64,000 nucleotides of DNA from an uncultured Chryseobacterium sp. (GCA_964649165.1 CAZYPC010000003.1:11430-75429), one strand, 5' to 3'. Positions 4,736 to 49,317 are shown, counted from the first letter of the stretch. The notes: a model not told the origin generated them from the sequence alone. Translations and numbers: made by a program.

Positions 4736-4756
4736 GTCTATCAGGTCCGTCGATCC

Positions 4757-6929: not shown

Positions 6930-6945
6930 AGATGTGATGTCGGTA

Positions 6946-8820: not shown

Positions 8821-8977
8821 GGGTCGTTGGGGTTGTTGCAATAAGGGGTTGAGGGGCGAAAGTAGTTACGAGCCGTTGTCCATGGGATAAATGGAGTGCC
8901 AGGTCCTCGTCACGGAATGCGCGTTCCGTTTCCAACGTTCGCACGAAGCGGTCATTCGACACGTGGCCTAGGGAGGG

Positions 8978-10750: not shown

Positions 10751-10882
10751 GGATCTGTTCCCGTCCTCGAACGTAGGTGGCGCACTGATCCGTACCGGCG
10801 CGTTGACGTTCTGGAGCGAAGGGCCGCGAAAGTAGCCCAAGTCAGTACGTGGCCCCGTGCTTGAAGCGGACGCCAGGAAATG

Positions 10883-10908
10883 AAAAGGTCCCCTCGCGGA
10901 GACCTTTT
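10883..10908 (-). terminator. hairpin terminator of paralog E
   Basis: AAAAGGTC-ccctcgcgga-GACCTTTT hairpin with T-rich flanks, 25 nt downstream of the stop of gene 10933..12759. Confidence 0.5.
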
Positions 10909-10932
10909 CTGTCACGGTCGATCGTGGGCCCG

Positions 10933-17930: not shown

Positions 17931-19232
17931 TCACGACCTGAGCGTGGCGTCCAGTGCTTCGCACCAGGCCGTTCCGATCCGGTCGATGTGCGCATCCGTG
18001 TGCGCTGCGCAGATAAAGCCTACCTCATATCCGGAAGGTGCCGCGTACACGCCGCGCTCAAGCAGGGCCGCGTGCAGTTTCGCGTAGCTCTTCATGCTGC
18101 CCGGGTCTATCGCGCTCGCTTCCTTGATGTGTTCGCCCCGCGCGAAGAAGCTCCAGAAGATCGAACCGAGGTGATCGACGTGGCAGTCGTATCCCTTCGA
18201 CCTCGCATGTGTGTTCACGCGGTCGCACAGCGTTGCGGTCTTCCGTTCCAGGTCCGGGTAGAATCCCGGTTTCGTGCATTCCTGCAATTGCGCGAGCCCG
18301 GCGGCCATCGCGACCGGATTGCCGCTGAGCGTGCCCGCTTGGTAGACCGGTCCGTCGGGCGCGATGTGCTTCATCAGTTCGAGCAGCCCGCCGTACGCCC
18401 CCACGGGCATGCCCCCGCCGATGATCTTGCCATAGGTCACCAGGTCCGGGATGATGCCGTAATGCGCCGTGGCCCCGCCGAAGCCGATGCGGAATCCGCT
18501 GATGACCTCATCGAAAATGAGCACGCCGCCATGCTTCGTGCACAGCTCACGTAGTTTCAGCAAGAACGACTTGTCCTGCAGGAGTAGCCCGTTGTTCGCC
18601 GGCACGGGTTCGATGATGGCGCAGGCGATGCGGTCCCCATGCTTCGCGAAGGCGGCTTCCAGTGCGGCCTCGTCGTTCAACGGAACGACGATGGTGAGCG
18701 CCGCGAGCGCTTCAGGAACGCCCGCCGAAGACGACGTGCCGAACGTCGCCAACCCGCTGCCCGCGTTCACCAACAGGCTGTCGAAGTGCCCGTGGTAGCA
18801 GCCGTCGAATTTGATGATGAGGTCCCGCTTCGTTGCACCGCGCGCAAGACGGATCGCGCTCATCACCGCCTCGGTACCGCTGCTGGTAAAGCGCATTCGC
18901 TGGATGAACGGGTTGCGCTCCATGATGAAGGAGGCCAGCGCATTCTCCTCCTCCGTCGGCGCACCGAACGTGCTGCCCTTGGCTGCTGTTCGTGTGATGG
19001 CCTCGACCACGCGGGGATGCGCGTGCCCGAGGATGAGCGGCCCCCAGCTATGGCACAGGTCGATGAAGCGGTTGCCATCGGCGTCGATGACCTCGGCGCC
19101 TTCGCCGCGCGCGAAGAACAGGGGCGTGCCACCGACACTCTTGAACGCACGGACGGGTGAATTCACCCCGCCAGGGAAGAGTTGAAGGGCCTTTTGGTAC
19201 AGCTGCTCGGAGCGTGTGCGTGCAATGGACAT
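17931..19232 (-). CDS. hemL: glutamate-1-semialdehyde 2,1-aminomutase
   Basis: 433 aa. N-terminal SEQLYQKALQLFPGGVNSPVRAF... PLP class-III aminotransferase fold. Full-length match to HemL architecture. Confidence 0.95.
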   Translation of the reverse strand: MSIARTRSEQLYQKALQLFPGGVNSPVRAFKSVGGTPLFFARGEGAEVIDADGNRFIDLCHSWGPLILGHAHPRVVEAITRTAAKGSTFGAPTEEENALASFIMERNPFIQRMRFTSSGTEAVMSAIRLARGATKRDLIIKFDGCYHGHFDSLLVNAGSGLATFGTSSSAGVPEALAALTIVVPLNDEAALEAAFAKHGDRIACAIIEPVPANNGLLLQDKSFLLKLRELCTKHGGVLIFDEVISGFRIGFGGATAHYGIIPDLVTYGKIIGGGMPVGAYGGLLELMKHIAPDGPVYQAGTLSGNPVAMAAGLAQLQECTKPGFYPDLERKTATLCDRVNTHARSKGYDCHVDHLGSIFWSFFARGEHIKEASAIDPGSMKSYAKLHAALLERGVYAAPSGYEVGFICAAHTDAHIDRIGTAWCEALDATLRS

Positions 19233-19284
19233 CGGTCAGGTTTCGGGGCGGCGAAGCTCCTACTTTCGTCGGCCTACCCGTCAC

Positions 19285-20595
19285 ATGTCCGTCACCTTCG
19301 AGAATTCCCTCGCCTTCGCCCAGCGTATGGACCAGCAGGATCCGCTGCGCGACCTCCGCAACGAGTTCTTGTTCCCGCAACACAACGGTACCCCCGTCAT
19401 CTATTTCACGGGCAACTCGCTCGGCCTTCAACCGAAGGGCGCCGCCGCCGCGTTGAAGCAGGAGCTGGACGATTGGGCCACCTTCGGGGTGGAAGGGCAC
19501 TTCCAGGCGAAGAATCCCTGGTATCCCTATCACGAGTTCTTCAGCGAGAGCCTGGCGCGCATCGTGGGTGCGAAGCCGACGGAAGTGGTCGCCATGAACG
19601 GGCTGACGACGAACCTTCACCTGCTTATGGTGTCGTTCTATCGGCCCAGCGGGAAGCGAACGAAGATCCTTTGTGAGGAACGACCGTTCCCGAGCGACAC
19701 GTATGCCTTCAAGTCACAAGCCGAATTCCATGGGCTCGACGCGAACAGCACGGTGATCGGCATGAAGCCGCGCGCCGGTGAGCATACGTTGCGCACCGAG
19801 GACATCGTGAAGCGCATCGAAGAACTCGGCGATGAACTCGCGCTCGTCTGCTTCGGTGGCGTGAACTTCCTGACCGGTCAGGCCTTTGATATGAGATCCA
19901 TCACCGAGGCCGGACAGCGGGTCGGTGCTGTGGTCGGCTTCGATCTCGCGCATGCTGCTGGCAACCTCAAGCTCGCGATGCACGATTGGAGCGTGGACTT
20001 CGCCTGTTGGTGCAGCTACAAGTACCTCAACAGCGGACCGGGAAGCATCGCGGGCGCGTTCGTTCACGAAAGACATCACCGCGAGAAGCTTCCGCGCTTC
20101 GCGGGCTGGTGGGGCCACGACAAGAACGAGCGCTTCCTGATGGAACCCGAGTTCAAACCGATGGCGAGCGCCGAAGCGTGGCAGTTGAGCAATGCCCCGG
20201 TCTTCAGCATGGCCGTGCATCGGGCGTCGCTCGACCTGTTCGACCGCGCAGGTATGGATGCGCTCCGCGCGAAGAGCGAACAGCTCACCGGTTTCCTGAA
20301 ACTGGTGCTGAATGAGATCTCGGTGGAGCACGCGAACCTCTTCGAGATCATCACGCCGAACGACCCTGCGGAACGCGGTTGCCAACTGAGCCTGCTTGTG
20401 CGCGAGAACGGAAGGGCACTCTTCGATGCGCTCACCAAGAACGGCGTGGTCGTCGACTGGCGCGAACCGAATGTCATCCGGATGGCGCCGGTGCCACTGT
20501 ACAACAGTTTTGAGGATGTGTTCCGTTGCGGTGAAGTGTTGAACAACGCATTGCGCGCTAACGCCTTCGCCGACGCTTCGGCGAGCAAAGCATGA
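19285..20595 (+). CDS. kynU: kynureninase
   Basis: Internal ATG (MSVTFENSLAFAQRMDQQDPL...) of ORF 19216..20595. Class-V aminotransferase fold with the conserved kynureninase N-terminal region. ATGA overlap with the downstream KMO gene. Confidence 0.85.
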   Translation: MSVTFENSLAFAQRMDQQDPLRDLRNEFLFPQHNGTPVIYFTGNSLGLQPKGAAAALKQELDDWATFGVEGHFQAKNPWYPYHEFFSESLARIVGAKPTEVVAMNGLTTNLHLLMVSFYRPSGKRTKILCEERPFPSDTYAFKSQAEFHGLDANSTVIGMKPRAGEHTLRTEDIVKRIEELGDELALVCFGGVNFLTGQAFDMRSITEAGQRVGAVVGFDLAHAAGNLKLAMHDWSVDFACWCSYKYLNSGPGSIAGAFVHERHHREKLPRFAGWWGHDKNERFLMEPEFKPMASAEAWQLSNAPVFSMAVHRASLDLFDRAGMDALRAKSEQLTGFLKLVLNEISVEHANLFEIITPNDPAERGCQLSLLVRENGRALFDALTKNGVVVDWREPNVIRMAPVPLYNSFEDVFRCGEVLNNALRANAFADASASKA

Positions 20596-21938
20596 GTAAC
20601 ATCACGATCGTCGGCGGTGGACTTGTGGGGAGCCTGCTCGCTGTCTTCCTCGCGAAACGCGGCCACAAGGTGAATGTGTTCGAGCGCCGCGGCGATCCAC
20701 GCAAGACGGATGTGTACGCGGGGCGCAGCATCAACCTCGTCGTTTCGCACCGCGGCTGGACGGCCTTGCGTGCGGCCGGTGTGGAGGATGCCGTGAAGGC
20801 GATCACCGTGCCCGTGTACGCGCGCATGATGCACGACCGCGATGGCAAGCTCAATCGTGTGCCGTACAGCATCGATAACCGCGCGATCTATTCGGTTTCA
20901 CGCGGCGAACTGAACCGTCGATTGCTCACGGAGGCGGAGAAGCTGCCGAACGTGAAGCTGTTCTTCGACCATAGATGTTTGGATGTCGATCTCGCGAACG
21001 CGGAATGTGTCTTCGAGAACGGCGGTGCGCGCGTGACCCGGAAGGCGGACGTTGTCTTCGGCAGCGATGGAGCATTCAGCGCCGTGCGCCAGAAGATGAT
21101 GCAAGGGCGCTTCACGTACAGCCAGGAGTACATCGAGCACGACTACAAGGAGGTGGCCTTCCCTGCGAACGCGGACGGTACGCCCAAGATGGACCCGCAG
21201 TGCCTGCACATCTGGCCGCGCCGCTACTACATGATGATGGGCCTGGCCAACCAGGACGGTGGCTTCACCGGTACGCTCTTCATGCCGAACACGCACACGG
21301 AGAACGCCCCGGGCTTCGATGTCGTGAAGACCGAGGAACAAGTGACGAAGTTCTTCGCTGACCATTTCGCGGATGCGATGCCCATCGTGCCTGACCTGGT
21401 GCAGCAATACCTGCGCAACCCTCAGAGCTCGCTTGTGATCATCCGCTGCAATCCGTGGCAGGTGAATGGCAAGGTGGCGCTGATCGGTGATGCGGCCCAC
21501 GCGATCGTTCCCTTCTACGGCGAGGGCATGAACGCGGGCTACGAGGATTGCAAGGTGCTGAACGACCTGCTGAACGAACACGGCGACGACAACTGGTCCA
21601 AGGTGCTCCCGCGCTACGCCGCCAAACGCAAGCCGAACGGGGACGCCATCGCCGACCTGTCACTCCGCAACTTCATCGAGATGCGCGACCTGGTGGCCGA
21701 TCCGAAGTTCCTGCTGCGCAAGAAGATCGAAGGCCACCTGCAAGCGAAGCACCCGGACCAATGGCTGCCGCTCTACAGCCAGGTGAAGTTCAGCGACATC
21801 GAGTACAAGGACGCGTGGAAGGAGGGGCTGCGGCACGACCGGATCATGGAGGAGGTGCTGGCGATGCCGGGGATCGAGGAGAAGTGGGGGAGTGAAGAGG
21901 TGGAGAAGAAGGCGCTGCAATTGATGCGGGCAACCTAG
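20592..21938 (+). CDS. kmo: kynurenine 3-monooxygenase (FAD-dependent)
   Basis: N-terminal FAD-binding IVGGGLVGSLLAVFLAKRG. About 450 aa. Translationally coupled to kynU. Confidence 0.8.
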   Translation: MSNITIVGGGLVGSLLAVFLAKRGHKVNVFERRGDPRKTDVYAGRSINLVVSHRGWTALRAAGVEDAVKAITVPVYARMMHDRDGKLNRVPYSIDNRAIYSVSRGELNRRLLTEAEKLPNVKLFFDHRCLDVDLANAECVFENGGARVTRKADVVFGSDGAFSAVRQKMMQGRFTYSQEYIEHDYKEVAFPANADGTPKMDPQCLHIWPRRYYMMMGLANQDGGFTGTLFMPNTHTENAPGFDVVKTEEQVTKFFADHFADAMPIVPDLVQQYLRNPQSSLVIIRCNPWQVNGKVALIGDAAHAIVPFYGEGMNAGYEDCKVLNDLLNEHGDDNWSKVLPRYAAKRKPNGDAIADLSLRNFIEMRDLVADPKFLLRKKIEGHLQAKHPDQWLPLYSQVKFSDIEYKDAWKEGLRHDRIMEEVLAMPGIEEKWGSEEVEKKALQLMRAT

Positions 21939-23951: not shown

Positions 23952-24015
23952 GCCGCATGTCGCTGTCAGCCCAAGTGGGGACCATAAATGAGAGGCGGCC
24001 GACTTCCTTTGGGCC

Positions 24016-24543
24016 GTGGACACCGCCGCGACGTTCAGAGCGCTGTACGATGCGCACGCCCGCATGGTCTACAACCTCTGCCTGAACCATCTGCGCAACG
24101 CGGATGAAGCGGCCGAAGCCACACAGGATGTCTTCGTGAAGGTCCACGAAAAGCTGTCGGGTTTCAAGGGCGATGCGACCCTGCGCACCTGGATCTACAG
24201 GATCACGATCAATACGTGTCTGGACCGGTTGAAGGCGCGCAAGCGGAAGAAACGCGCGTTGTTCGGCTGGTTGAGCCTTTCGGATGAACATGTCGAACGC
24301 GCCGCATCCGCCGTGTTCGATCACCCTGGCGTTGCCGCTGAGGATCGAGAGGCCCTCGAACGCTTGTTCGTGATGGTCGATGACCTGCCCGGACAGCAGC
24401 GGACCGCCTTGCTGCTGAAGACCTCCGAGGACCTGTCGATGGTCGCCATCGCCGAGGTGATGGGTATTTCATCGAAGGCGGTGGAATCGCTTTTGTCCCG
24501 CGCCCGTGCCAACCTGCGTCAACGCCTGCCCAACGAAGGATGA
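24016..24543 (+). CDS. RNA polymerase sigma-70 factor, ECF subfamily
   Basis: Region 2 (VKVHEKLSGFKG...WIYRITIN) and region 4 (LPGQQRTALLLKTSEDLSMVAIAEVMGIS) motifs. 175 aa. Confidence 0.85.
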   Translation: MDTAATFRALYDAHARMVYNLCLNHLRNADEAAEATQDVFVKVHEKLSGFKGDATLRTWIYRITINTCLDRLKARKRKKRALFGWLSLSDEHVERAASAVFDHPGVAAEDREALERLFVMVDDLPGQQRTALLLKTSEDLSMVAIAEVMGISSKAVESLLSRARANLRQRLPNEG

Positions 24544-24574
24544 ACACGTATCTGTCGTCAAACACCGCAAGAAC

Positions 24575-24847
24575 ATGGACACGAACGCCCCGGAAGACCT
24601 GCTGAAGCGCGTAGCGCGCGTCGATCCGCCACCGTTCCTGTTCACGCGCATAGAAGCCCGCCTGGCGAGCGGGGCATTGATGCGGGTGCCGCGCGCTCGA
24701 CTGGTCGCCGTGGCTTGTGGGCTGGCACTGCTGCTGCTGGCGAACGTGAGCGTGATCATGCGGGCGTCACGCGCTGCGGCCGGCCCATCTTTGTGCGACG
24801 TGGCCGAAGGAATGGGCATGAACGTGACCAACCAGCTCTACCAATGA
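24575..24847 (+). CDS. putative anti-sigma factor (single-pass membrane protein)
   Basis: Immediately downstream of the ECF sigma gene. About 90 aa with one TM helix LVAVACGLALLLLANVSVIM. Internal ATG of ORF 24506..24847. Confidence 0.45.
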   Translation: MDTNAPEDLLKRVARVDPPPFLFTRIEARLASGALMRVPRARLVAVACGLALLLLANVSVIMRASRAAAGPSLCDVAEGMGMNVTNQLYQ

Positions 24848-25296
24848 CGCGCACCCGCTTGTTGTCCATCGCGGTGGTGGCGCTGGTAGTGCTCAACCTG
24901 ACCACGCTCGGTGTGCTCTTCTTCCGAAGGCCGCCGCACCCGCACGGGCGGCATGAGGGACCGAGGGCGATCATCATCGAACGGCTGCAACTGGATGCGG
25001 ACCAGGTGAAGGTCTATGAGGGCTTGATCCGGGACCACCGTGGCAAGATCGAAGAGCTCGACCGGCACATGCTGGAGTTGCGCGGGCGCCTCTACGATGC
25101 TGAGTATCCCTTGTCCGCGGACTCGATCATCTCCCTCATCGGCGAAACGCAGAGCACGATCGAGCGTACGCACACCGACCACTTCGCGCGCATCCGTGCG
25201 ATCTGCCGGCCCGATCAGTTGCCGTTGTTCGACAGTATGACCAAAGATCTCGCCGGTTTCTTCCGGAACGGCCCACCACCGCTGAAAGAGCCGTAA
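24844..25296 (+). CDS. membrane-anchored periplasmic sensor-like protein (CnrX / Spy-CpxP-like, His-rich)
   Basis: ATGA overlap with the anti-sigma gene. N-terminal TM anchor followed by HPHGRHEGP and a helical LxxQ-containing domain (LQLDADQ, ICRPDQ). Third member of a sigma / anti-sigma / sensor trio. Confidence 0.4.
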   Translation: MTRTRLLSIAVVALVVLNLTTLGVLFFRRPPHPHGRHEGPRAIIIERLQLDADQVKVYEGLIRDHRGKIEELDRHMLELRGRLYDAEYPLSADSIISLIGETQSTIERTHTDHFARIRAICRPDQLPLFDSMTKDLAGFFRNGPPPLKEP

Positions 25297-25973
25297 TGAA
25301 GGCGCTGCTGACGATCGTGTTGGGCGCCGCCCTGAGCATTCCCGATACCCGCGCGCAACGCATCGCGTTCACCCCGGTGGTACGCGATGTTCCGCTTGTG
25401 CTGGACAAGCCGTTCGTGCTCGGTGATCAAGGGCCGGTCACCATCACGCAGTTCAAGTTCTATGTCGGTCAATTCACGTTCTACCGCGCAGGGAAGCCGC
25501 TCGTGTATGACCACAGCTACTATCTCATCGACGCCGCGGATACCACGACCTTCGATGTGGGGACGGTCTTTCGGCCAACTCCCATCGACTCGGTTTCCTT
25601 CCTGCTTGGTGTGGACAGCCTCACCAACGTGAGCGGCGTCTTCGGCGGTGACCTCGATCCGATCAAGGGCATGTACTGGACATGGAACAGCGGTTACATC
25701 AACCTGAAGCTGGAAGGCACGAGCCCACGTTCACCCTACGCGACGCATGCGTTCGAATTGCATTTGGGCGGCTACCTGCCACCGTTCCCTACGGTGCAGC
25801 GCGTAACCCTTCCATTGCACGGCCTCGGACCTTGGCACTTCGGTGTTGACGTTGTACCGCTTCTCGAGTCCGCTGACGTCAGTACGCGATGCAATGTGAT
25901 GTCCCCGGGAGAACAAGCGCTGCGACTTTCCAAGGCCTCGGTTACGATGTTCAAGAGCGATGCGCTGCGGTAA
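25296..25973 (+). CDS. MbnP-like periplasmic (copper-binding-type) protein, WxW motif
   Basis: Signal peptide MKALLTIVLGAALSIPDTRAQ. YWTWNSGY (WxW) motif. Predicted beta-rich. About 225 aa. Overlaps the downstream di-haem peroxidase gene by 14 nt. Confidence 0.5.
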   Translation: MKALLTIVLGAALSIPDTRAQRIAFTPVVRDVPLVLDKPFVLGDQGPVTITQFKFYVGQFTFYRAGKPLVYDHSYYLIDAADTTTFDVGTVFRPTPIDSVSFLLGVDSLTNVSGVFGGDLDPIKGMYWTWNSGYINLKLEGTSPRSPYATHAFELHLGGYLPPFPTVQRVTLPLHGLGPWHFGVDVVPLLESADVSTRCNVMSPGEQALRLSKASVTMFKSDALR

Positions 25974-26988
25974 ATGGTTGGTGATCCCGTTGACAGGCGT
26001 GCTGTGCGCCTTGATGGCCGCTGGAACCATGCCGGCACATCCGGTACAACTCGGGGTGCCGAAAGGTTGGCCCCCGATGAGCTACGATCTTTCTCGGAAC
26101 CCGTTGACGCAGGAGGGCATCGCGCTCGGCCGGAAGCTCTTCCATGATCCCCTTCTTTCGCTCGACAGCAGTACTTCCTGCTCGAGTTGTCATCTCTCCT
26201 ACACGGCCTTCAGCCACACGGACCACCAGCTGAGCCACGGCATCCACGACAGCATCGGCACGCGCAACGCGCCCGCCCTGATGAACCTGGCGTGGAGCAA
26301 GACCTTCATGTGGGACGGCGCGGTGAACCACCTGGATATGCAGCCCCTCGCGCCGATCAACCATTCCGGGGAGATGGGTGAGAGCACGCAGCATGTCGTG
26401 TTCAAACTGGAGAACAGCCGCACCTATCGTCGTCTTTTCGCGGAGGCGTTCGGTGACTCCATGATCCTGAGCGACCGCATGTTGAAAGCGCTCGCGCAGT
26501 TCCAGCTTTCGCTCGTGTCCGCAGGTTCCCGCTATGACCGGATGAAGGCCGGCGTCGAGCTTTTCACCGAACAAGAGCGGAACGGCTACCTGTTGTTCCA
26601 GGCGCATTGTAACACCTGCCACAAGGAGCCGCTCTTCACCACCGGCGAGTTCGCCAACAACGGCCTGCCCCCGGACAGTCTGCTGCGGGATGGCGGGCGC
26701 ATCCGCATCACGCACGACCCCGAGGATTCGCTGAAATTCAAGATCCCCACGTTGCGCAACGTCGAGTATTCGTTCCCCTACATGCACGACGGGCGGTTCA
26801 AACGGTTGCGCCAGGTGATCGACCACTACGCGAGCGGGATCATGACCTCCGGATCATCGGCCCCCCAGTTGAAGAAGCCGATCATGCTGACACCGGAGGA
26901 ACGCACGGACCTCGTGGCCTTCCTCCTCACCCTGAGCGACCGGGAGTTCGTGATGGACCCGGACCATGCGGCGCCCAGGAACTACTGA
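25960..26988 (+). CDS. di-haem cytochrome c peroxidase family protein (MauG/MbnH-like)
   Basis: Two CxxCH haem motifs (CSSCH, CNTCH). Signal peptide. 342 aa, with the overall CCP/MauG length and spacing. Confidence 0.8.
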   Translation: MRCGKWLVIPLTGVLCALMAAGTMPAHPVQLGVPKGWPPMSYDLSRNPLTQEGIALGRKLFHDPLLSLDSSTSCSSCHLSYTAFSHTDHQLSHGIHDSIGTRNAPALMNLAWSKTFMWDGAVNHLDMQPLAPINHSGEMGESTQHVVFKLENSRTYRRLFAEAFGDSMILSDRMLKALAQFQLSLVSAGSRYDRMKAGVELFTEQERNGYLLFQAHCNTCHKEPLFTTGEFANNGLPPDSLLRDGGRIRITHDPEDSLKFKIPTLRNVEYSFPYMHDGRFKRLRQVIDHYASGIMTSGSSAPQLKKPIMLTPEERTDLVAFLLTLSDREFVMDPDHAAPRNY

Positions 26989-27036
26989 GCGAAGGATGCG
27001 TGCGCGGACGTCGTCCAACGGTCACACCCCACCGAG

Positions 27037-28857
27037 ATGAAGTCCACCACCGCACTCGCCTGTCTTCTCCTGGCGTCCGGAACAAGGGCCCAGCTGGGCC
27101 CGAACATCACGCAATGGCTCGTGAACACGACGGGCACGACGGGTCGCCACTACGTATCCGGCAACAGCACACCGATCAATGACGCGGTGCAGGTGAACGT
27201 GCAGAACGTGAAGTACAGCGCGAGCCAGGTGTACGTGACCTGCACGGGCATCCCGTCGTATGTCACCGGCCCTTTCCTGGACGGGAATCCTTCGTCGGCA
27301 ACGAACCAGAACGCGATCTTCCGGTTGCCGCGCATCCCTGTACAGAACACCGGAACGCCCACCAATACCACGGGTGGCAACATCGGCATCTTCATCAATG
27401 GCGTCGCGTTCTTCGACTACCGCGACGGTGTTTCCTGGAGGAACGCCACGCAGCAATTGTGCGGAGGTCCGATCCAACCGATGTGCACGGGTGATGGTGT
27501 CTGGAACCGCGACGCCGTGCCTGCGGAGCGTGCGGGCTTCGATTGCTCGAAGGGCCACCCGGCCATGGGCAACTACCATCATCATCAGAACCCGAGCGCC
27601 TTCAACCTGGACATCAATGTGATCTCCACGGTATGCAACCTGTACGCGGCGGATGGTCTCTATGCCATCGACAGCACGCGACATTCCCCGTTGCTGGGAT
27701 TCGCGTATGATGGGTTCCCGGTGTATGGCGCTTACGGCTACGCGAATGCGGATGGCACCGGGGGTCTCAAGCGCATCCGCTCGAGCTACCAGGTCCGGAA
27801 CATCACAGTGCGCACGCACTACGCGAACGGCACGGATGTCACCGATGGCCCTGCCGTGAACACGACCTATCCGCTCGGTTACTTCCGCGAGGACTATGAG
27901 TACATCGCGCATGCGGAACCGTACTATCTGGATGCGCACAACGGCCGTTCCTGCGTAACCCCCGAATATCCCGGCGGCACGTACGCCTACTTCTGTTCCG
28001 TGGACGCGAACTGGAATTCAGCTTACCCGTACATCGTGGGGCCGACGTTCTACGGCGTGGTGACGGGAGCGAAGGTGGCCTCCATCGCTGAGACGGTCAC
28101 CACGTACAGTTGGGTGAAGCTGGCGGCACGCGTCTACCTGCAGGGACCATATGATAGCGGTTCCGGTCTGATGAACGATGGGCTGCGCGCTGCTTCATTG
28201 CTTCCGACCACACAGCCGTACACCGCCTTGGGATACAGCTTTACGGGGACAACGGTGACCAATGGGACAGTGGCTCCGGGAGTCTTCACCACGACCACGG
28301 GGAACAACGCCATCGTCGATCATGTGATCGTTGAATTGCGCAACGCCGTCACACCTTCCACCGTGCTCGCGAGTTGCCCCGCCCTGCTGCAGCGCGATGG
28401 TGATGTGGTGGCGCTCGATGGCCGATCCACACTTGTCATCGCCATCGCACCGGGCACCTACCACGTGGCCCTGCGTCATCGCAACCATCTCGGTGTGATG
28501 ACGGGCACCGCGGTCGCGCTGGGCAACAACTCCACCACGGTGGATCTCACGTCCACCGGAACAACGTTGTACGGTAGCAATGCCACAGCGACGGTAGGTG
28601 CAACGCGTTTGTTGTGGTCAGGTGATGTCAGCTACAACAAGACGCTCGCCTACACCGGCAGCGGGAACGATCGCGATCCCATCCTCGTGACAGTGGGCAG
28701 CACCACGCCGAACAACACGGTTGCGGCTTACAGCTCATCCGACGTCGACCTCGATGGTTCGGTCAAATACACCGGCAGCAACAACGACCGGGACCGTATC
28801 CTGGTGAATGTCGGCAGCACGACACCCAACAGCATCCAGAACGAACAACTCCCCTGA
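27037..28857 (+). CDS. secreted YHYH-domain (His-rich) protein with C-terminal dockerin-like repeats
   Basis: Signal peptide. GNYHHHQNPSAF, DSTRHSPLLGFAYDGFPVYGAYGY and YAYFC motifs. C-terminal repeated DxDxDG/NNDRD calcium-binding-like repeats. About 70 % identical to the next gene across the core. Confidence 0.6.
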   Translation: MKSTTALACLLLASGTRAQLGPNITQWLVNTTGTTGRHYVSGNSTPINDAVQVNVQNVKYSASQVYVTCTGIPSYVTGPFLDGNPSSATNQNAIFRLPRIPVQNTGTPTNTTGGNIGIFINGVAFFDYRDGVSWRNATQQLCGGPIQPMCTGDGVWNRDAVPAERAGFDCSKGHPAMGNYHHHQNPSAFNLDINVISTVCNLYAADGLYAIDSTRHSPLLGFAYDGFPVYGAYGYANADGTGGLKRIRSSYQVRNITVRTHYANGTDVTDGPAVNTTYPLGYFREDYEYIAHAEPYYLDAHNGRSCVTPEYPGGTYAYFCSVDANWNSAYPYIVGPTFYGVVTGAKVASIAETVTTYSWVKLAARVYLQGPYDSGSGLMNDGLRAASLLPTTQPYTALGYSFTGTTVTNGTVAPGVFTTTTGNNAIVDHVIVELRNAVTPSTVLASCPALLQRDGDVVALDGRSTLVIAIAPGTYHVALRHRNHLGVMTGTAVALGNNSTTVDLTSTGTTLYGSNATATVGATRLLWSGDVSYNKTLAYTGSGNDRDPILVTVGSTTPNNTVAAYSSSDVDLDGSVKYTGSNNDRDRILVNVGSTTPNSIQNEQLP

Positions 28858-28880
28858 CGCACCTTCGCGCCCCAACGATC

Positions 28881-30257
28881 ATGAACAGAATATTCCCGCT
28901 CATTATGGCCCTGGCTATGTCCGCCTTCGCCTCCGCACAGACCGATCCGGTGATCATTGATTGGTTGTTCAACACAACGGGCATCACCGGCTCGCACTAT
29001 GTGTCCGGTAACTCGACGCCGATCCAGGATGCGGCGCAGGCGAACGTGCAGCAAGTGCAGTATTCGGACGACTGGTCTTACGTACACACGCAGGGCATTC
29101 CCGCATACATCACCGGACCGTTCCTGGACGGCAACCCGAACCAGGCGGGCGGGCAGAACGCCATCTTCAGGATCCCGCGTACGCCACAGCCCAACCAAGG
29201 CACCTTGGATGTGACCACTGGCGGTGATATCGGTGTGTTCATCAACGGGGTCGCGCTGTTCGATTTCCGCGATGGCTGCGGCTGGAACCCCAACACCAAC
29301 GCGCTTTGCGGAGGTCCCGGCAATCCGCCCTGTCCTGGTCCGCCCGGCCAACTGCAGGATTGGAACCGCGATGCGATCGTGGCCGAACGGGCAGGTTTCG
29401 ATTGTGCCAAAGGGCACCCGCAACAACAAGGGACTTACCACCACCATCAGAACCCCAGCGCGTTCAACCTCGACCTCACGGTGCTCTCCAACGTCTGCGA
29501 CCTCTACCTCGCCGATGGTCTTTATGCCATCGACAGCACGGAGCATTCACCGCTGCTGGGCTTCGCGTTCGATGGCTATCCGATCTATGGAGCATACGGC
29601 TATGCGAACGTGGACGGCACAGGCGGCATCACGCGCATCCGGTCGGGCTATCAGTGGCGGAACATCACCACGCGCACTACGCATGCCGATGGTACCGATG
29701 TGAGCGATGGCCCTGCTGTGAACGAGACCTACCCGATCGGCTATTTCCGCGAGGACTATGAATTCCTGACCCATCCGGAGCCTTTCTACCTGGACGAACA
29801 CAACGGTCGCTTCTGTGTGACGCCGGAGTTTCCCTCCGGCACGTACGCCTACTTCTGCACGGTCGACGCCGCTTGGAACTCGGTCTATCCCTATGTCGTT
29901 GGCCCAACCTTCTACGGTGTGAAGACGGCGACCCTGGTAACGACCATCACGGAGGCTGTGACCACCTACGATCCCTTGACCGCGGCTGTGGCTTCCATCG
30001 CGCCGGAAGATGACCGTGTGACCGTGTTCCCCAACCCCGGTGGCGATCTGATCGCGGTGCAGGTGCATGGCATCGTTCGCGAGAACCTGCCCATCGCACT
30101 TTACGACATGAGCGGCAAGCTCGTGCGTTCGGAGGTGATCAAGCAGGGAAGTACGATCTGGTACCTGGACACCCGCACCCTGTACGATGGCTTGTACAAC
30201 GTGCGCATCGGACAGGGCCGTGGGGCCATCTGCACCCAGGTGCAGGTGGTCCATTGA
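28881..30257 (+). CDS. secreted YHYH-domain (His-rich) protein with T9SS C-terminal sorting domain
   Basis: Paralog of 27037..28857 (GTYHHHQNPSAF etc.). C-terminal VFPNPGGDL...LYDMSGKLV...GLYNVRIGQ... CTD. Confidence 0.65.
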   Translation: MNRIFPLIMALAMSAFASAQTDPVIIDWLFNTTGITGSHYVSGNSTPIQDAAQANVQQVQYSDDWSYVHTQGIPAYITGPFLDGNPNQAGGQNAIFRIPRTPQPNQGTLDVTTGGDIGVFINGVALFDFRDGCGWNPNTNALCGGPGNPPCPGPPGQLQDWNRDAIVAERAGFDCAKGHPQQQGTYHHHQNPSAFNLDLTVLSNVCDLYLADGLYAIDSTEHSPLLGFAFDGYPIYGAYGYANVDGTGGITRIRSGYQWRNITTRTTHADGTDVSDGPAVNETYPIGYFREDYEFLTHPEPFYLDEHNGRFCVTPEFPSGTYAYFCTVDAAWNSVYPYVVGPTFYGVKTATLVTTITEAVTTYDPLTAAVASIAPEDDRVTVFPNPGGDLIAVQVHGIVRENLPIALYDMSGKLVRSEVIKQGSTIWYLDTRTLYDGLYNVRIGQGRGAICTQVQVVH

Positions 30258-30334
30258 TGGATCACACGTCGCGGGGTTGACACTTCGGCGTGGTCGGTGC
30301 GCGTTGTTGGGACGGGACAGCCCAACTTCGTGGC

Positions 30335-31174
30335 ATGAAGCGCTTGGTCCTGATCGGTTGTTTGTTCGTGCCCGTGTTGCTCTCAGCGCAGGGGTTGATG
30401 GAACGCAAGCACCCGGACATTTTCCCGCTCGATGGCAAGATGAAGCGCAGCGGCTTCTTCATTGCGCCGGGCGTGACATGGGCGCTTGCACCGTTCAAGG
30501 ACCGGGAGGAACACGATGAATTCGGTTCGGATACGATGGTCGATGCGGTGTATCACGGCATTGGCAAGCTCGGGCTGTATCTCGAAGCGGGCTGGTTCAT
30601 CTCCACGCGCGATCCAGTGATCATCGACTATTGGGACTTCGGGCTGGCGTACAAACAATTGAAAGGGCGGGAAGAGTCGGAGGGCTCGTTCGCACGGGGT
30701 GATAGCATTGGCCAGTGGTTCAGTGAGGGGGACTTCAACGATCAGCATCTCACCCTTGCGATCAACGCGAACAAACTGTTCTGCGTGCGCGACTATCGGT
30801 TCTTCCAGTTCAGCCTGGGGGCCAACGTGGACTGGCGCTTCGGAGAGGGCCGTGACTTCGAGGGCTTCTTCGTGCCCGACTCACAGGACTTTCCGCCGGA
30901 GTTCATCGGCCAGGCGCACGCCAAACTCGGCTTCGGCTTCAAGCTCACGCAGCAGTTGATGATCATTCCCGCGATCGAGACACCTTTCTTCAGCGTAATG
31001 CCGGAGGATCAGGGTTTCGGACGCCTTCAGTGGTTCAACACCACGTACCGCCCGCTCATCTTCAGTGTCCGTTTCCTCTTCCTCCGCTATCCCAACGGAT
31101 GGGCATGCCCTCCGGTGAAGAACAACGAGTTCGAACGGCACAAGGTGGTGAACCCGGAGTACAAGCGGAGGTAG
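30335..31174 (+). CDS. hypothetical exported / outer-membrane-like protein
   Basis: Internal ATG with signal peptide MKRLVLIGCLFVPVLLSAQG. Alternating aromatic / beta-strand-like pattern. C-terminal F-rich end. Confidence 0.45.
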   Translation: MKRLVLIGCLFVPVLLSAQGLMERKHPDIFPLDGKMKRSGFFIAPGVTWALAPFKDREEHDEFGSDTMVDAVYHGIGKLGLYLEAGWFISTRDPVIIDYWDFGLAYKQLKGREESEGSFARGDSIGQWFSEGDFNDQHLTLAINANKLFCVRDYRFFQFSLGANVDWRFGEGRDFEGFFVPDSQDFPPEFIGQAHAKLGFGFKLTQQLMIIPAIETPFFSVMPEDQGFGRLQWFNTTYRPLIFSVRFLFLRYPNGWACPPVKNNEFERHKVVNPEYKRR

Positions 31175-31178
31175 TGCG

Positions 31179-34100
31179 TCAACGTGGCGTGTGCGCCTGA
31201 ACGGTCTTCGTATCGGTCGGTCCCAGGACCAGTATCGGCCCGCTGTTGTTCAATACCAGGAGGCATTCGCCTCGACCGGCGATCGCGATGGGAAGCACGT
31301 GACGCGTATCGTATGGAATGGAGATGCCGCTTGCCCGACCCTCGACCGGAGTCAGCCCTCCCTTGCCGTCGCCGCGCAATAAGAGACCCATGCTCGCGTC
31401 GTACCGCGGGGTCTCAGCCTCGGCGCCGTAGTGGTTGCCGGCCACCAACAGATCCATCCGGCCATCCTTGTCGGCATCCAGCATCCGGAGAGATCGCGCA
31501 GCGGAGACCTGCGCGGCCATCGGCAACGGCCTTGCCTCGAAATGCCCGTTGACGTTGATGAACAGCGCACTCGCGAAGCTGGTCGCCTTCAACCGCAGAG
31601 CGTCATTGAGCGCCGCGCCATAGATGTTCTCCAAGGTGGCATCGGCGAATGCCTTGTAGGTAGGGAACCGGCCTTGGATGAACGGCATCTGTCGGCTTGA
31701 ACACTCGCGACCGCGCACCGGCAATTCACACTGGTCACCCGTTTTCGCGAGCACGATGTCGTTGGTGCCGCTGTGGTCCAGATCCCCCATATAGACCTGG
31801 AGCGGCTTGTCGTTGGACGGATGGAACTTGTTGTTCAGGCCGATGTTGCCTGCCGCCAGGTCAAGATCGCCGTCGCCATCGATGTCACCGACGGTCATTC
31901 CCTGCCACCAGCCGGTCAGCGACGTGTCGAGCACACTGGAGGAGATGTCCTTGAATGCACTGCCCGTGTTCTTGAGCACACGTATGGGCATCCATTCGCC
32001 GCATAGCAGGAGTTCCGCACGCTTGTCGTTGTCGATGTCCGAGAACAGCGCTTGCGTGATGAGTCCTGGTCGTGGAAGTGAGGTCAGCCATGTGGATGAA
32101 ACGTCCTTGAAGGTGCCGTGGTCGTTCAACAGCACCTGACTTGCCGGCGGGGAAGGCCAGGCCCCGGGAACGTTCCGGCCTCCGACGAAGAGATCGGGAT
32201 CACCGTCGCCATCGATGTCATCGGAGGCGATGGCCGATGCGCTCACCCGGAGGTCCGGCAGGGCCTGTTCGGCGTAGTCGAACGCACCGTGGCCATCGTT
32301 GGTGAACATCCGGGCCCGGTACCGCTCATCCCCCGGAGGGAATTCCGTGCTACCAGCGGCCAGGTACAGGTCCGCGTCATGGTCGCCATCCGCGTCGAAG
32401 AAAAGCGCGCCGTTGAACTCGGAGGTTCGGAAGACGTTCCACGGTTGCGCGGGTGCCGGAGCGAATTGTCCGGTGCTTTTCTGGAGGAGCAACAGGCATG
32501 GACTTCCGGCCGAAGCCGTCAGGAAAAGGTCGTCGAGACCATCACCGTTCACGTCGGCTACCGCAGCCGCAGGGCCGTGCATGCTCTGGCGGTGGGGCAG
32601 AAGGGACTCCGCCTTGAACTCATCGTAGGCGTTCTCATGATGACCGAAGCGCAATCCCAAATCACCGGCGATCTCCCTGAAAAGTGGTCGAGTGCGCGTT
32701 GTGCGCGGTCGTTCCCGCAACGATGAACGATCGACGGTGAGCCGTTCGTTCCGTTCCGGACCGATCAGCACTGTCTGCCGGCCATCAGGCCAATCGATCA
32801 CCACGGAATCGATGTGGTCATCGGGAACGCCGAAATGCAACACCGGTTCCACGCTGCCCTGGTACCCGCGCGCGGGGAACAGGGCACACACCTGGCGGCC
32901 GCTGGCCGAATGGAGTTCGGCTGACGCGCCAGTGGCGAACGGGTTTTTCGCCTCGCCTTTCAAGACCAGTTGCAGATAACCCGCGCCCGTGTTCTCGCGC
33001 GTGAGATTGCGCACCACCGTCGCCGGGGAGTTCACATTGACCGTCACCAGGTCCAGGTCCCCGTCCAGGTCAAGATCCGCGTACGTGCCCCCGTTGCTCA
33101 AGGTCTTCTGGTGATAGCCCCATTCGTCCATCGCCTTGGTGAACGTGAGATCATGCGCGTTGCGGAAGACCATCTTCTCCGGAACGTGCGTGGGCGCGAG
33201 GTCCAGGAGCGGTTCGAAAGCCACCTGCTTGCTGGAAGCACCGGTGAATTTGCGCACTTGGTCCCTGAAATCGTTGTTGCCCACATCCCGTGCGATGCCA
33301 TTGGTGACGAACAGGTCCTTCCACCCATCGTTGTCCAGGTCGACGAACAAAGGGGCCCAGCTCCAGTCGGTGCGGTCCACTCCGGCCATCTGCGCCACCT
33401 CGCTCCAGGTGCCATCACCGTTGTTGCGCTGGAGCGTGTTGATCATGTACTGGTAGTGCATTCCACGGTCCACCATCGCGTCGAACTGCCCCGGTGCCAT
33501 GCTCGCCATGTTCTCCTTGTTCAGCTTGTGGTCGCCGGGGGTCATGTCCAATACGCACAGGTCCGGATCGCCATCGTTGTCGTAGTCCGCGCGATCGATG
33601 CCCATGCTGAAGTAGGACGTGTGCTTCAGCGCCTGCCGGGAGATGTCGGTGAAGTGAGGGATGGCACCGGGTCCGCGTGTGCCGTCGTTCACCATCATGA
33701 GGTCGGGCGTGTAGAAATCGTTCGTCACATAGATGTCCAACAGACCATCCGCGTTCAGATCGCCCAGTGCGGCACCAAGGCCATAGTGGTGGCTCGCCAA
33801 CCCGGCTTCCAACGTCCCATCGACAAAGTGGCCACTGCCGTCATTCAGGTACAATTTGTTCGACGTGCCCGGGTCGTAAGGGGGCTTGGGGCCTGCGAGC
33901 TCCTTCCCGAGGGGGAGGAAGTCGGATCGGTGTGAAGCGATGAAGCAGTCGAGGTCGCTGTCTCGGTCCACATCGGCGAAGTAGGCCATCGTGTTGTGCC
34001 CTTCGTCCGCCAGACCGGCAGTGGCCGCATCTTCCTTGAACCGGCCTTCGCCGAGGTTGATGAACAACTTGTTGCGGCGGGTCGCCGCCGCCCACCCAGC

Positions 34101-34556
34101 GGGGCCGGATGCGCAGACATAGATGTCCAGGCGACCGTCCGCGTTCACGTCCGCCATGCTCACCCCCGTTGCCCAGATGGCGTCGATGTTGAACCCGGCA
34201 TCCTCAGATATGTCCTTGAACCTCATCCCGCCGAGATTCTTGTACAGGGCGCCTCCACTCCGGTAGCTCGCGAAGGCGAGGTCCGCCAGGCCGTCCCCAT
34301 CAATGTCACCGGCCGCGACGCCACCACCGTTGTACATGTAGAGGTAGCGGAAGTAATTGGCCTCGTTGTCCTCGATGATGGTGTTGCTGAAGGTTATTCC
34401 CGTGCTGTCTGGGCCTAGAACTTCCAGGCGGGTGCCGGACTTCGGAGCAACTGAAGTGTCTTGCCTGGGTGCTGGCCGCTCGCACGCGGCAATGAGGAGC
34501 GCGACGATGAAGCATGCGCTACAACCGTTCACAAAGGACCTCCGGGCTCCGTTCAT
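31179..34556 (-). CDS. CRTAC1-family lipoprotein with FG-GAP/VCBS repeats and ASPIC/UnbV C-terminal domain
   Basis: Lipobox LIAAC. Multiple DxDGDGxxD FG-GAP calcium-binding repeats. C-terminal UnbV/ASPIC-like region. 1125 aa. Confidence 0.75.
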   Translation of the reverse strand: MNGARRSFVNGCSACFIVALLIAACERPAPRQDTSVAPKSGTRLEVLGPDSTGITFSNTIIEDNEANYFRYLYMYNGGGVAAGDIDGDGLADLAFASYRSGGALYKNLGGMRFKDISEDAGFNIDAIWATGVSMADVNADGRLDIYVCASGPAGWAAATRRNKLFINLGEGRFKEDAATAGLADEGHNTMAYFADVDRDSDLDCFIASHRSDFLPLGKELAGPKPPYDPGTSNKLYLNDGSGHFVDGTLEAGLASHHYGLGAALGDLNADGLLDIYVTNDFYTPDLMMVNDGTRGPGAIPHFTDISRQALKHTSYFSMGIDRADYDNDGDPDLCVLDMTPGDHKLNKENMASMAPGQFDAMVDRGMHYQYMINTLQRNNGDGTWSEVAQMAGVDRTDWSWAPLFVDLDNDGWKDLFVTNGIARDVGNNDFRDQVRKFTGASSKQVAFEPLLDLAPTHVPEKMVFRNAHDLTFTKAMDEWGYHQKTLSNGGTYADLDLDGDLDLVTVNVNSPATVVRNLTRENTGAGYLQLVLKGEAKNPFATGASAELHSASGRQVCALFPARGYQGSVEPVLHFGVPDDHIDSVVIDWPDGRQTVLIGPERNERLTVDRSSLRERPRTTRTRPLFREIAGDLGLRFGHHENAYDEFKAESLLPHRQSMHGPAAAVADVNGDGLDDLFLTASAGSPCLLLLQKSTGQFAPAPAQPWNVFRTSEFNGALFFDADGDHDADLYLAAGSTEFPPGDERYRARMFTNDGHGAFDYAEQALPDLRVSASAIASDDIDGDGDPDLFVGGRNVPGAWPSPPASQVLLNDHGTFKDVSSTWLTSLPRPGLITQALFSDIDNDKRAELLLCGEWMPIRVLKNTGSAFKDISSSVLDTSLTGWWQGMTVGDIDGDGDLDLAAGNIGLNNKFHPSNDKPLQVYMGDLDHSGTNDIVLAKTGDQCELPVRGRECSSRQMPFIQGRFPTYKAFADATLENIYGAALNDALRLKATSFASALFINVNGHFEARPLPMAAQVSAARSLRMLDADKDGRMDLLVAGNHYGAEAETPRYDASMGLLLRGDGKGGLTPVEGRASGISIPYDTRHVLPIAIAGRGECLLVLNNSGPILVLGPTDTKTVQAHTPR

Positions 34557-48213: not shown

Positions 48214-49317
48214 ATGAAGACCATCGGATCGAAGGGAGTGAAGTGCGCGCTGATCGCATCGGCCTTGGCGTGCGCCGTGGGCAACGGCCTGGCACAGGAC
48301 GCGCCCAAATACAGCAATGAGTTCCTCGCCATCGGCGTAGGTGCCCGCGCGTTGGGCATGGGCTACGCCTACACCGCCGGCGTGAACGATGTGACCAGCG
48401 GCTACTGGAACCCGGCAGGCCTCATGGGCATCCGTGGCGACCTGCAGGTGGCCGCCATGCACAGCGAGTATTTCGCCGGCATCGCCAAGTACGACTACAT
48501 CGGCATCGGCAAGCGCATCGACACCACCAGCGCGATCAGCTTCTCCGTGATCCGCTTCGGGGTGGACAACATCCCCAACACCACGGACCTCATCGACAAC
48601 AACGGGAACCTGGACTACGACCGCATCACCACGTTCACTGCCGCAGACCATGCCTTCCTGATCAGCTATGCGCGCAAGCTGAAGATCCCCGGTCTCCGCG
48701 TGGGCGCCAACGCCAAGATCATCTACCGTAAGGTGGGACCCTTCGCCAAGGCGTGGGGCTTCGGCTTGGATGCGGGCGCGCAGTATGACAAAGGCACCTG
48801 GAGATTGAGCGCCATGGCCCGCGATGTCACCAGCACCTTCAACGCGTGGAGCTACACACTGGATCAGCGCACCCTGGATGTCTTCGCGCAGACGGGAAAT
48901 GAGATCCCGACGAACGGCGTGGAGGTCACCCTGCCCCGCCTTGTGCTGGGCGTGGCCCGTGAGGTGAAGATCACTGGCAAGCTGGGCCTGATCGCATCGC
49001 TCGACCTGGAGAACACCTTCGATGGCAAGCGGAACACCGTACTCGCTTCCGATCTCTGGAGCGCTGATCCCCGCTTCGGCCTGGAGCTGGGATATGCAGG
49101 CGTCGTTTTCGTGCGTGGCGGCGTGAACAACATGCAGTACGTCACCGAGATCGACGGGCAGAAAGCGTTCGACTTCCAACCGAACATCGGCGTGGGCCTG
49201 AAGATCAAGAGCGTGGTGTTGGACTACGCGCTCACGAACATCGGCACAACGGGCGTGGCGCTCTATTCGAACGTGTTCTCGCTCCGCTTCGATCTGTACA
49301 AACCGAAGGCGACATGA
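48214..49317 (+). CDS. porV: T9SS outer-membrane beta-barrel protein PorV (LptO)-like
   Basis: Signal peptide. NEFLAIGVGARALGMGYAYTAGVNDVTSGYWNPAGL N-terminal motif typical of FadL-like PorV. About 367 aa. Terminal beta-strand ends with F/Y. Confidence 0.6.
   Translation: MKTIGSKGVKCALIASALACAVGNGLAQDAPKYSNEFLAIGVGARALGMGYAYTAGVNDVTSGYWNPAGLMGIRGDLQVAAMHSEYFAGIAKYDYIGIGKRIDTTSAISFSVIRFGVDNIPNTTDLIDNNGNLDYDRITTFTAADHAFLISYARKLKIPGLRVGANAKIIYRKVGPFAKAWGFGLDAGAQYDKGTWRLSAMARDVTSTFNAWSYTLDQRTLDVFAQTGNEIPTNGVEVTLPRLVLGVAREVKITGKLGLIASLDLENTFDGKRNTVLASDLWSADPRFGLELGYAGVVFVRGGVNNMQYVTEIDGQKAFDFQPNIGVGLKIKSVVLDYALTNIGTTGVALYSNVFSLRFDLYKPKAT

Follow-up and report, generated by a model that had tools for sequence, protein, structure and literature searches.

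Background

In the characterised MbnP/MbnH system, MbnH turns a Trp of the WxW motif of MbnP into kynurenine, which creates a copper site of His, Met and kynurenine (PMC11951088; PMC3621798). MopE and CorA of methanotrophs are secreted kynurenine-copper proteins with adjacent di-haem MauG-like peroxidases (PMC3621798). Here we describe a locus in a 64,000-nucleotide (nt) stretch of DNA from an uncultured Chryseobacterium sp. (GCA_964649165.1, CAZYPC010000003.1:11430-75429; hereafter the window, with positions counted from its first letter), in which an MbnP/MbnH pair is followed by two tandem genes, P1 and P2, whose products carry the YHYH domain (Pfam PF14240). The operon context of the two genes, which an earlier sequence-only reading had missed, is the main clue to their function.

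The window shares with the MbnP/MbnH system (Kenney & Rosenzweig 2013, PMC3621798; PMC11951088) the adjacent gene pair, the WxW motif accompanied by Met and His, and the two CxxCH motifs. It differs from methanobactin-type MbnP/MbnH operons in having neither a methanobactin gene nor a TonB-dependent MbnT, and in having a YHYH protein predicted to be exported by the type IX secretion system (T9SS) as well as a module of extracytoplasmic function (ECF) sigma factor, putative anti-sigma factor and Spy-like protein in front. Methanotroph MopE/CorA with its MauG-like peroxidase would be the closest functional analogue (PMC3621798). The logic is the same as in MopE/CorA with MCA2590/CorB, an exported His-rich protein being encoded beside a di-haem MauG-like enzyme in a copper context, but no sequence relationship of MopE/CorA to P1 or P2 was detected, and the Cu-binding_MopE motif (PF11617) had no match in either protein at E <= 0.01.

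We hold with moderate confidence that P1 and P2 are exported metalloproteins in which a presumed His4/Asp centre handles a metal, presumably copper, together with periplasmic MbnP/MbnH, under the control of an envelope ECF sigma factor.

The operon and its two YHYH genes

Eight genes on the + strand (24016-31174) form the operon, in the order ECF sigma factor, anti-sigma factor, Spy-like protein, MbnP, MbnH, P1, P2 and a 294-amino-acid (aa) open reading frame (ORF). They overlap or are separated by at most 48 nt, and a scan found no terminator-like site between 24915 and 31500. The sigma factor matched NCBIfam TIGR02937 (sigma70-ECF) with 94 bits (cut-off 42.9). The putative anti-sigma factor has no Pfam family; the role is assigned because the gene follows that of the ECF sigma factor, and the same position holds an 89-91-aa gene in three relatives (L001, L003 and L006). 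The Spy-like protein matched Pfam PF13801 (Metal_resist) with 30.7 bits (cut-off 29.2), and its likely start, M44, is conserved in at least 80% of 32 aligned sequences.

The genes for MbnP and MbnH overlap by 14 nt. At least 90% of 61 aligned MbnP sequences keep G125, M126, Y127, W128, W130, H156 and M202; that the M-Y-W-x-W motif is retained together with H156 and M202 agrees with the published His/Met/kynurenine copper site (PMC11951088). MbnH has two CxxCH motifs (C74-H78 and C217-H221), each conserved in at least 90% of 67 aligned sequences.

P1 and P2, which are 23 nt apart, have exactly the coordinates given in the sequence-only reading, and its description of adjacent paralogues with a shared core and divergent C-termini was confirmed. 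The two proteins are 66% identical (74% positives) over 373 aligned aa in BLASTP (E 2e-171), with no significant similarity past residue 374 of P1 and 378 of P2, and the DNA of the core is 70% identical over 1018 bp. The three motifs that had been quoted as shared each occur in both: the first reads GNYHHHQNPSAF in P1 and GTYHHHQNPSAF in P2, the second DSTRHSPLLGFAYDGFPVYGAYGYAN and DSTEHSPLLGFAFDGYPIYGAYGYAN, and the third, GTYAYFC, is identical. In the signal peptide of P1, a basic N-terminus and a hydrophobic core precede small residues at a site that ends in AQ; P2 is alike, with Q20 invariant and A19 conserved in at least 90% of 75 homologues.

Conservation of the operon in other Bacteroidota

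Exact protein look-ups identified six relatives with the order sigma factor, protein of ~90 aa, protein of ~113-153 aa, MbnP, MbnH, YHYH protein with T9SS domain and protein of ~290 aa. One of these, L006, has unrelated outer flanks yet the same gene order. A scan of one genome per species yielded 80 YHYH loci, which span Flavobacteriales, Crocinitomicaceae, Saprospiraceae, Chitinophagales, Sphingobacteriales and others. Forty-six loci were informative, with at least 2.2 kb upstream and at least 3.5 kb downstream of the YHYH gene. MbnP and MbnH lie on the strand of the YHYH gene in 40 of these 46, and in 34 of the 40 MbnH is immediately upstream of it. At one further locus (L076) MbnH is present and a rhodopsin gene is inserted. 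Sufficiently long flanks were available at 59 loci, and 35 of these have an ECF sigma factor gene upstream of the YHYH gene.

In unsupervised clustering of the ORFs of all 80 loci, the only recurring families were MbnH (70 loci), MbnP (62), ECF sigma factor (33) and Spy-like protein (33), and no other family was found in more than 12 loci.

The YHYH core

Both proteins belong to PF14240, with scores of 182.3 bits for P1 and 180 bits for P2 (gathering threshold 25 bits). Homologues of the P2 type number more than 7000 proteins at E <= 1e-5; the best 120 all pair PF14240 with PF18962, and the named sources are Flavobacteriales, Saprospiraceae and other Bacteroidota. Searched in full with HMMER, a set of 1.84 billion cluster representatives contained 2287 with the YHYH domain, in many architectures.

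Family-wide conservation was assessed in an alignment of 124 diverse YHYH proteins (30-64% identity; residues in P2 numbering). Conserved in at least 93% of the sequences are H179, Y186, H187, H189, H222, D231, D174, D292 and D305, likewise W161, Y236, Y322, Y324 and several Gly and Pro; R310 is conserved too. Six of these, Y186, H187, H189, H179, H222 and D231, reach at least 95%. Both paralogues carry the Y-H-x-H motif and the remaining family-invariant His and Asp. H188 (H, Y, N or T) and H307 (Y or H) are variable. The conserved residues of P1 are W156, D169, H174, Y180, H181, H183, H216, D225, D286, D299, Y316 and Y318, and the conserved core set is complete in both proteins. The P1/P2 subfamily departs from other PF14240 members in its N-terminal extension, its Cys pairs and its additional His (YHHH, H307). 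Its proteins carry either a T9SS tag or a new module, and their genes are located in MbnP/MbnH operons.

The sequence-only reading had suggested a metal or redox cofactor site from invariant His, Tyr and Cys residues. For His and Tyr, and also for Asp, the alignment agrees (at least 93% of the 124 proteins), but no Cys of P2 is conserved across it. C143 and C151 lie within a subfamily insertion, and C175 and C206 occur together in only 19 of the 124 sequences. Lacking family-wide conservation, the Cys are unlikely to be cofactor ligands and more likely form subfamily disulfides. Given the four family-invariant His with Asp and Tyr, and two metal-linked neighbourhoods, a metal site in the YHYH core is a reasonable reading.

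YHYH genes in other settings

On a Deinococcus plasmid (L097, 5779-7855), a 325-aa YHYH lipoprotein gene is followed after 5 nt by that of a HupE/UreJ family protein. A metagenome scan seeded with this subfamily gave 80 loci (L099-L178), 60 of them with enough downstream sequence; 25 of these have a gene of a single HupE_UreJ_2 family next to the YHYH gene downstream, on the same strand and at a median offset of 3.5 nt. Three parts make up the partner: a signal peptide that exposes an N-terminal His, an EF-hand-like DDDGDG stretch and a HupE_UreJ_2 membrane domain (PF13795), confirmed by Pfam. As in HupE/UreJ-type permeases with an upstream accessory gene, this distant YHYH subfamily is thus paired with HupE_UreJ_2 at zero distance, but the partner is absent from our window. 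The pairing supports a general role of the domain in metal trafficking.

A plasmid of the Cytophagales member Chondrinema litorale (L098, 4110-7714) carries genes for a sigma factor, a 105-aa protein, an LTXXQ/Spy-like protein, a 313-aa YHYH lipoprotein, a 214-aa hypothetical protein and a TlpA-type thioredoxin, so the order sigma factor, anti-sigma factor, Spy-like protein, YHYH is kept there without MbnP/MbnH. YHYH domains also occur in 464 phage records, nearly all from T4-like cyanophages (cyanomyoviruses), at about 36% identity and in up to three places per genome. The conserved residue set, with its His and Asp, is retained in the cyanophage protein and the Chondrinema lipoprotein; the Deinococcus lipoprotein keeps it except for H222, which aligns to Ala, possibly through misalignment. 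The MbnP/MbnH, HupE_UreJ_2 and phage contexts indicate at least three settings for the domain, two of them in metal trafficking. Three distant YHYH representatives (P0289, P0368 and P0339) lie on short contigs or in uninformative surroundings.

Proposed copper handling and its alternatives

On the copper interpretation, P1 and P2 would be the cargo genes of an envelope operon headed by an ECF sigma factor. Each protein would be exported by Sec, and four His of the ~350-aa core, with Asp and Tyr, would make up a mononuclear metal centre. Copper would be the most likely metal in this Bacteroidota subfamily, with the periplasmic MbnP/MbnH pair as partner. P2 is predicted to leave through the T9SS and to act at or beyond the cell surface, where it may capture copper for the periplasmic MbnP step or, in the opposite direction, it may be copper-loaded by that step. 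In P1, a strictly C-terminal module of a beta-sandwich and a dockerin-like part takes the place of the T9SS tag, with all conserved core residues kept, and probably docks the protein to a different partner or place.

Several observations weigh against a role in copper handling. MbnP scored 26.5 bits against the NCBIfam equivalog TIGR04052 (cut-off 140) and MbnH 201.2 bits against TIGR04039 (MbnH family; cut-off 362.85), with 174 bits against TIGR03791 (MauG); both are divergent family members. HupE/UreJ proteins are usually linked to nickel or cobalt, not copper. Five of the 46 informative loci, and likewise one distant YHYH gene, have no MbnP/MbnH nearby, and the five lie in housekeeping neighbourhoods with no alternative metal genes. 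An AlphaFold2 model of P2 built with 75 homologues (62-88% identical) had a mean predicted local distance difference test (pLDDT) score of 51.5, with the core below 50 and hence unreliable, and neither phmmer with P2 nor a profile of 83 diverse YHYH proteins found a solved structure related to the core. Both the profile and Foldseek with the P2 model matched C-terminal domains only, which for the profile were those of T9SS proteins. Many invariant positions have no obvious role as ligands (W161, R310, D292, D305 and four Tyr); they resemble an enzyme pocket more than a simple carrier, and their number argues for an enzyme. In Synechococcus phage S-SSM4 (L096, 4902-6674), the YHYH gene lies between those of a giant virion structural protein and the baseplate wedge. 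The searched literature, outside which the primary MbnP/MbnH papers lie so that an earlier mention is possible, did not link YHYH to copper or to MbnP/MbnH. Iyer et al. (2021) called the domain “enigmatic” and predicted a zinc site of three His and an Asp in a tail-associated hydrolase (PMC7824862).

That prediction, the phage records with their baseplate-adjoining copy in S-SSM4, and the many invariant polar residues besides His, which suggest a substrate pocket, would all suit a secreted zinc hydrolase whose substrate is an extracellular or cell-wall polymer, with the MbnP/MbnH linkage reflecting shared envelope-stress regulation and not copper chemistry. Hydrolases are also common among T9SS cargoes. 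We nevertheless consider this rather unlikely, as it is hard to square with the same-strand MbnP/MbnH linkage at 40 of 46 loci and with the HupE_UreJ_2 pairing in another subfamily, and no likeness of the core to any solved hydrolase was found.

The enzyme-like conservation pattern would also suit a YHYH protein that is a copper enzyme or that MbnH modifies as a second substrate. Either copper would be loaded into it by MbnP/MbnH, or MbnH would install a protein-derived cofactor (e.g., at W161 or Y186) in the periplasm ahead of T9SS export, giving an extracellular oxidase. The T9SS exports folded proteins, so modification before export is possible, and an invariant Trp and Tyr adjoin the HxH motif. 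MauG-family enzymes build protein-derived cofactors, as MbnH does with kynurenine in MbnP (PMC11951088), and in MopE/CorA secreted kynurenine-copper proteins are found with adjacent di-haem peroxidases (PMC3621798). The argument is purely inferential, however, and we regard this scheme as quite unlikely: subfamilies lacking MbnH keep the same Trp and Tyr, which therefore need no MbnH, and the expected substrate, MbnP with a WxW motif of its own, is never missing.

The C-terminus of P2

The canonical T9SS domain that had been assigned to P2 holds, as both hidden Markov model cut-offs were passed and the fold fits solved C-terminal domains. Residues 382-450 of 458 match Por_Secre_tail, with 32.4 bits for PF18962 (cut-off 27) and 29.6 for TIGR04183 (cut-off 23). 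The local pLDDT of this part of the AlphaFold2 model is about 62-89. In Foldseek it matched the C-terminal domain of mirolase (8qb1_A; target-normalised template modelling (TM) score 0.69-0.71, root-mean-square deviation 2.7) and that of T9SS-bound NucA (8glk_D; target-normalised TM score 0.78). The last ~80 residues of P2 are thus like the T9SS type A domain (TIGR04183/PF18962) in score, terminal position and fold, whereas P1 lacks this domain.

As judged from the 64-kb window, which is part of the genome, T9SS attachment machinery is encoded nearby. At 48214-54557 (+), a gene for a 367-aa protein, PorV-like by eye, precedes that of a 1747-aa PorU2-type protein, which matched NCBIfam NF052324 (“putative T9SS sortase PorU2”) with 554.6 bits (cut-off 450) and also Peptidase_C25; the presence of this sortase gene places the machinery within the same window. 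A same-length gene near a module-bearing gene in L087 had raised a link between PorU2 and the genes that carry the C-terminal module of P1, and this was rejected, as tblastn showed no similarity.

The window also contains five tandem genes at 2734-12759 (-), encoding proteins of 608-652 aa that are full-length mutual paralogues at 21-29% identity. Each ends with a T9SS type A sorting domain, and the passenger parts have no Pfam family.

The C-terminal module of P1

P1 and its last 252 residues matched no NCBIfam family at E <= 0.1, and so show no T9SS sorting domain of type A (TIGR04183) or type B (TIGR04131). The module likewise had no Pfam match at E <= 10, including Dockerin_1 (PF00404). 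It nevertheless has 1286 homologues at E <= 1e-3, in which no precomputed Pfam match spans it. Named sources of module-bearing proteins are Flavobacteriales, and within the window the module is present in a single copy. Of the best 120 homologues, all but one have a match that runs to the very last residue of the protein (…TTPNNxRxxQLP; 119 of 120). The passengers are typically extracellular and comprise proprotein-convertase P-domains, subtilases, Kelch, DUF5122 propellers, fn3, the MopE-type motif and YHYH. A shorter relative with only the LQGPY segment and the sandwich is present on other YHYH proteins. Sometimes gene calling sets the module apart as an ORF of its own (L087, 8001-8951; L089, 8001-8735), which either immediately follows a large passenger gene (DUF4082) or overlaps one (DUF5122 propeller); assembly frameshifts or split genes are suggested.

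An AlphaFold2 model of the module (pLDDT 92.2, predicted TM score 0.89) shows an N-terminal segment, a beta-sandwich and two loop-helix repeats. The sequence-only reading had described two DVDLDG…NNDRD dockerin-like calcium-binding repeats. An NDRD-type duplication is present, its unit being YTGS[GN]NDRD[PR]ILVxVGSTTPN (residues 539-550 and 578-589), but DVDLDG precedes only the second repeat, and the first reads GDVSYNK. In 103 sequences, NDR of the NDRD in repeat 1 is invariant and the next D and PIL are at least 90% conserved, and in repeat 2 D225, Y234, G236, N239, D240, R241, D242, Q260 and P262 (model numbering) are invariant. Each repeat is about 39 aa long with a 6-residue loop insertion, and each has the invariant NDR followed by a helix; the second starts with D-x-[DN]-x-D-G, which is the family consensus, and the first is without the DxDxDG start.

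The best fold matches in the PDB (Foldseek) were type II X-module-dockerins (XDoc; 4u3s_B, 5k39_B, 3kcp_A and 2b59_B). These matches are weak (E 4.8e-3 to 8e-2, query-normalised TM score up to 0.39), and a profile of 103 module homologues found no dockerin or other PDB match at E <= 10, so “dockerin-like” describes the shape of the module and not its family. With the XDoc of cellulosomal scaffoldins (PDB 4u3s, 5k39, 3kcp and 2b59) the module appears to share the beta-sandwich and the C-terminal duplicated loop-helix; its loops are also rich in D, N and G, and it too is a C-terminal addition to many different passengers. It differs in the ~39-aa repeats, the YTGSGN loop insertion, the missing Dockerin_1 match and the host, which is a Gram-negative Flavobacteriales bacterium. 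We infer that the strict C-terminal placement, the conserved terminus and the promiscuous fusion resemble those of sorting or anchoring tags.

Age of the duplication

The tandem duplication itself is ordinary. Most relatives carry one YHYH gene, and two further loci (L044 and L065) have tandem pairs in which both copies bear T9SS tags. In another Flavobacteriales species (L012), a gene for a 634-aa YHYH protein with the module precedes one for a 460-aa YHYH protein with the T9SS tag, as in the window. The core of P1 is 75.5% identical to that of the 634-aa protein and the core of P2 72% to that of the 460-aa protein, compared with 66% between P1 and P2; the modules of P1 and the 634-aa protein are 62.7% identical. 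In a neighbour-joining tree, P1 and its L012 orthologue branch outside the whole T9SS-type clade. A recent origin of the adjacent paralogues is thus contradicted: either the duplication is old or P1 evolved fast. The L012 orthologue with the same module indicates that the P1 copy has been maintained, and this copy has acquired a module that circulates in the lineage.

A periplasmic location of P1, or drift of the duplicate, with the module as a lineage-specific binding domain with no sorting role, would suit the missing type A and type B domains, the helical, dockerin-like last 75 residues, which are unlike the beta-sandwich of known T9SS signals, and the sufficiency of a single YHYH gene in most relatives, but is very unlikely in view of the complete set of conserved core residues, the maintained L012 orthologue, the terminal QLP conserved at the strictly C-terminal end of the module in 119 of 120 homologues, and the fusion to typically extracellular passengers, as in sorting or anchoring tags.

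Other features of the operon and its surroundings

The features of the operon are listed in Table 1. The motif TTCCTTTG is found at about 24004-24011, just upstream of the sigma factor start, and TTCCTTTG or TACCTTTG recurs 8-15 nt upstream of the sigma factor start codon in L010, L016, L079, L059 and L040. The motif resembles the Bacteroidota -7 promoter element, TAnnTTTG. The proteobacterial ECF promoter pattern (GAAC…CGT) upstream of the sigma factor gene is not conserved among the relatives; a sigma-70 promoter scan is ill-suited to Bacteroidota.

The 294-aa ORF that closes the operon has no Pfam or NCBIfam family. Its amphipathic, alternating hydrophobic beta pattern suggests a possible outer-membrane barrel. 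Counterparts occur only in close relatives (L001, L003 and L006) and in 7 of the 80 genome loci, and in L019 an OMP_b-brl protein occupies its place. The next gene is convergent to it. Compared with the synteny of L001 and L003, where the 290-aa ORF is directly followed by a metallo-beta-lactamase-fold gene, the window has an insertion at 31179-34556 (-) that encodes a 1125-aa FG-GAP/ASPIC-UnbV protein.

Just upstream of the operon, at 19216-21938 (+), lie genes for a kynureninase and a kynurenine-monooxygenase-like FAD enzyme, which are also neighbours in L001 and L003-L005 and not in L006. The position of a free-kynurenine pathway beside a Trp-to-kynurenine protein maturase is probably a coincidence.

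Table 1. Coordinates of the operon genes in the window and of the domains and repeats of P1 and P2
Feature	Position	Strand	Remarks
ECF-type sigma factor, first gene of the operon	24016..24543	+	Pfam Sigma70_r2 and r4_2
Putative anti-sigma factor, short single-pass membrane protein	24506..24847	+	Likely start M24 at 24575, about 90 aa
Spy/CpxP-like “Metal_resist” protein with HPHGRH stretch	24715..25296	+	Likely start M44 at 24844, about 150 aa
MbnP-family periplasmic protein with GMYWTW (WxW) motif	25296..25973	+	Pfam PF20243, 120.9 bits (cut-off 27)
MbnH/MauG-like di-haem cytochrome c peroxidase	25960..26988	+	Pfam CCP_MauG PF03150, 169.5 bits
P1, YHYH protein with non-T9SS C-terminal module	27037..28857	+	606 aa
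P1 signal peptide (MKSTTALACLLLASGTRAQ)	27037..27093	+	Read from sequence
P1 YHYH domain, residues 95-327	27319..28017	+	Pfam match, E 1.3e-53
P1 C-terminal module, residues about 358-606	28108..28854	+	LQGPY segment, beta-sandwich (about 28312-28614), two loop-helix repeats
P1 module repeat 1 (GDVSYNKTLAYTGSGNDRDPILVTVGSTTPNN…)	28621..28737	+	Model helix at residues 202-208
P1 module repeat 2 (SDVDLDGSVKYTGSNNDRDRILVNVGSTTPNSIQNEQLP-COOH)	28738..28854	+	Model helix at residues 240-247
P2, YHYH protein with T9SS type A sorting domain	28881..30257	+	458 aa
P2 signal peptide (MNRIFPLIMALAMSAFASAQ)	28881..28940	+	Read from sequence
P2 YHYH domain, residues 96-332	29166..29876	+	Pfam match, E 6.4e-53
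P2 T9SS type A C-terminal sorting domain	30024..30254	+	PF18962 and TIGR04183 above cut-off
294-aa ORF closing the operon	30290..31174	+	Likely start M16 at 30335; signal peptide

Conclusions

Within the literature searched, the MbnP-MbnH-YHYH(T9SS) operon, the YHYH-HupE_UreJ_2 pairing and the strictly C-terminal module look undescribed. A bolder proposal combines two parts: YHYH proteins would be widespread, unrecognised exported metal-trafficking proteins or copper enzymes, and the P1 module would represent an undescribed third class of C-terminal sorting or anchoring signals in Bacteroidota, used by more than 1000 proteins. We think it doubtful that both parts hold together. The module, strictly C-terminal in more than 1000 proteins, may be a new cell-surface docking or sorting device of Flavobacteriales.

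Under the first part of that bolder proposal, the T9SS-secreted YHYH protein would be the extracellular arm of the Bacteroidota MbnP/MbnH copper system, serving either as a protein “chalkophore” or as a copper enzyme that matures in the periplasm and might carry a cofactor made by MbnH. For MbnP/MbnH outside methanotrophs, a conserved third partner exported by the T9SS would give a concrete, testable picture of how copper is handled across the outer membrane. Members of the YHYH family number in the thousands and come from bacteria, cyanophages and diatoms; the two independent metal-linked neighbourhoods provide the first context-based hypothesis of the family's function, one that challenges the sole published prediction, that of a phage-tail hydrolase.

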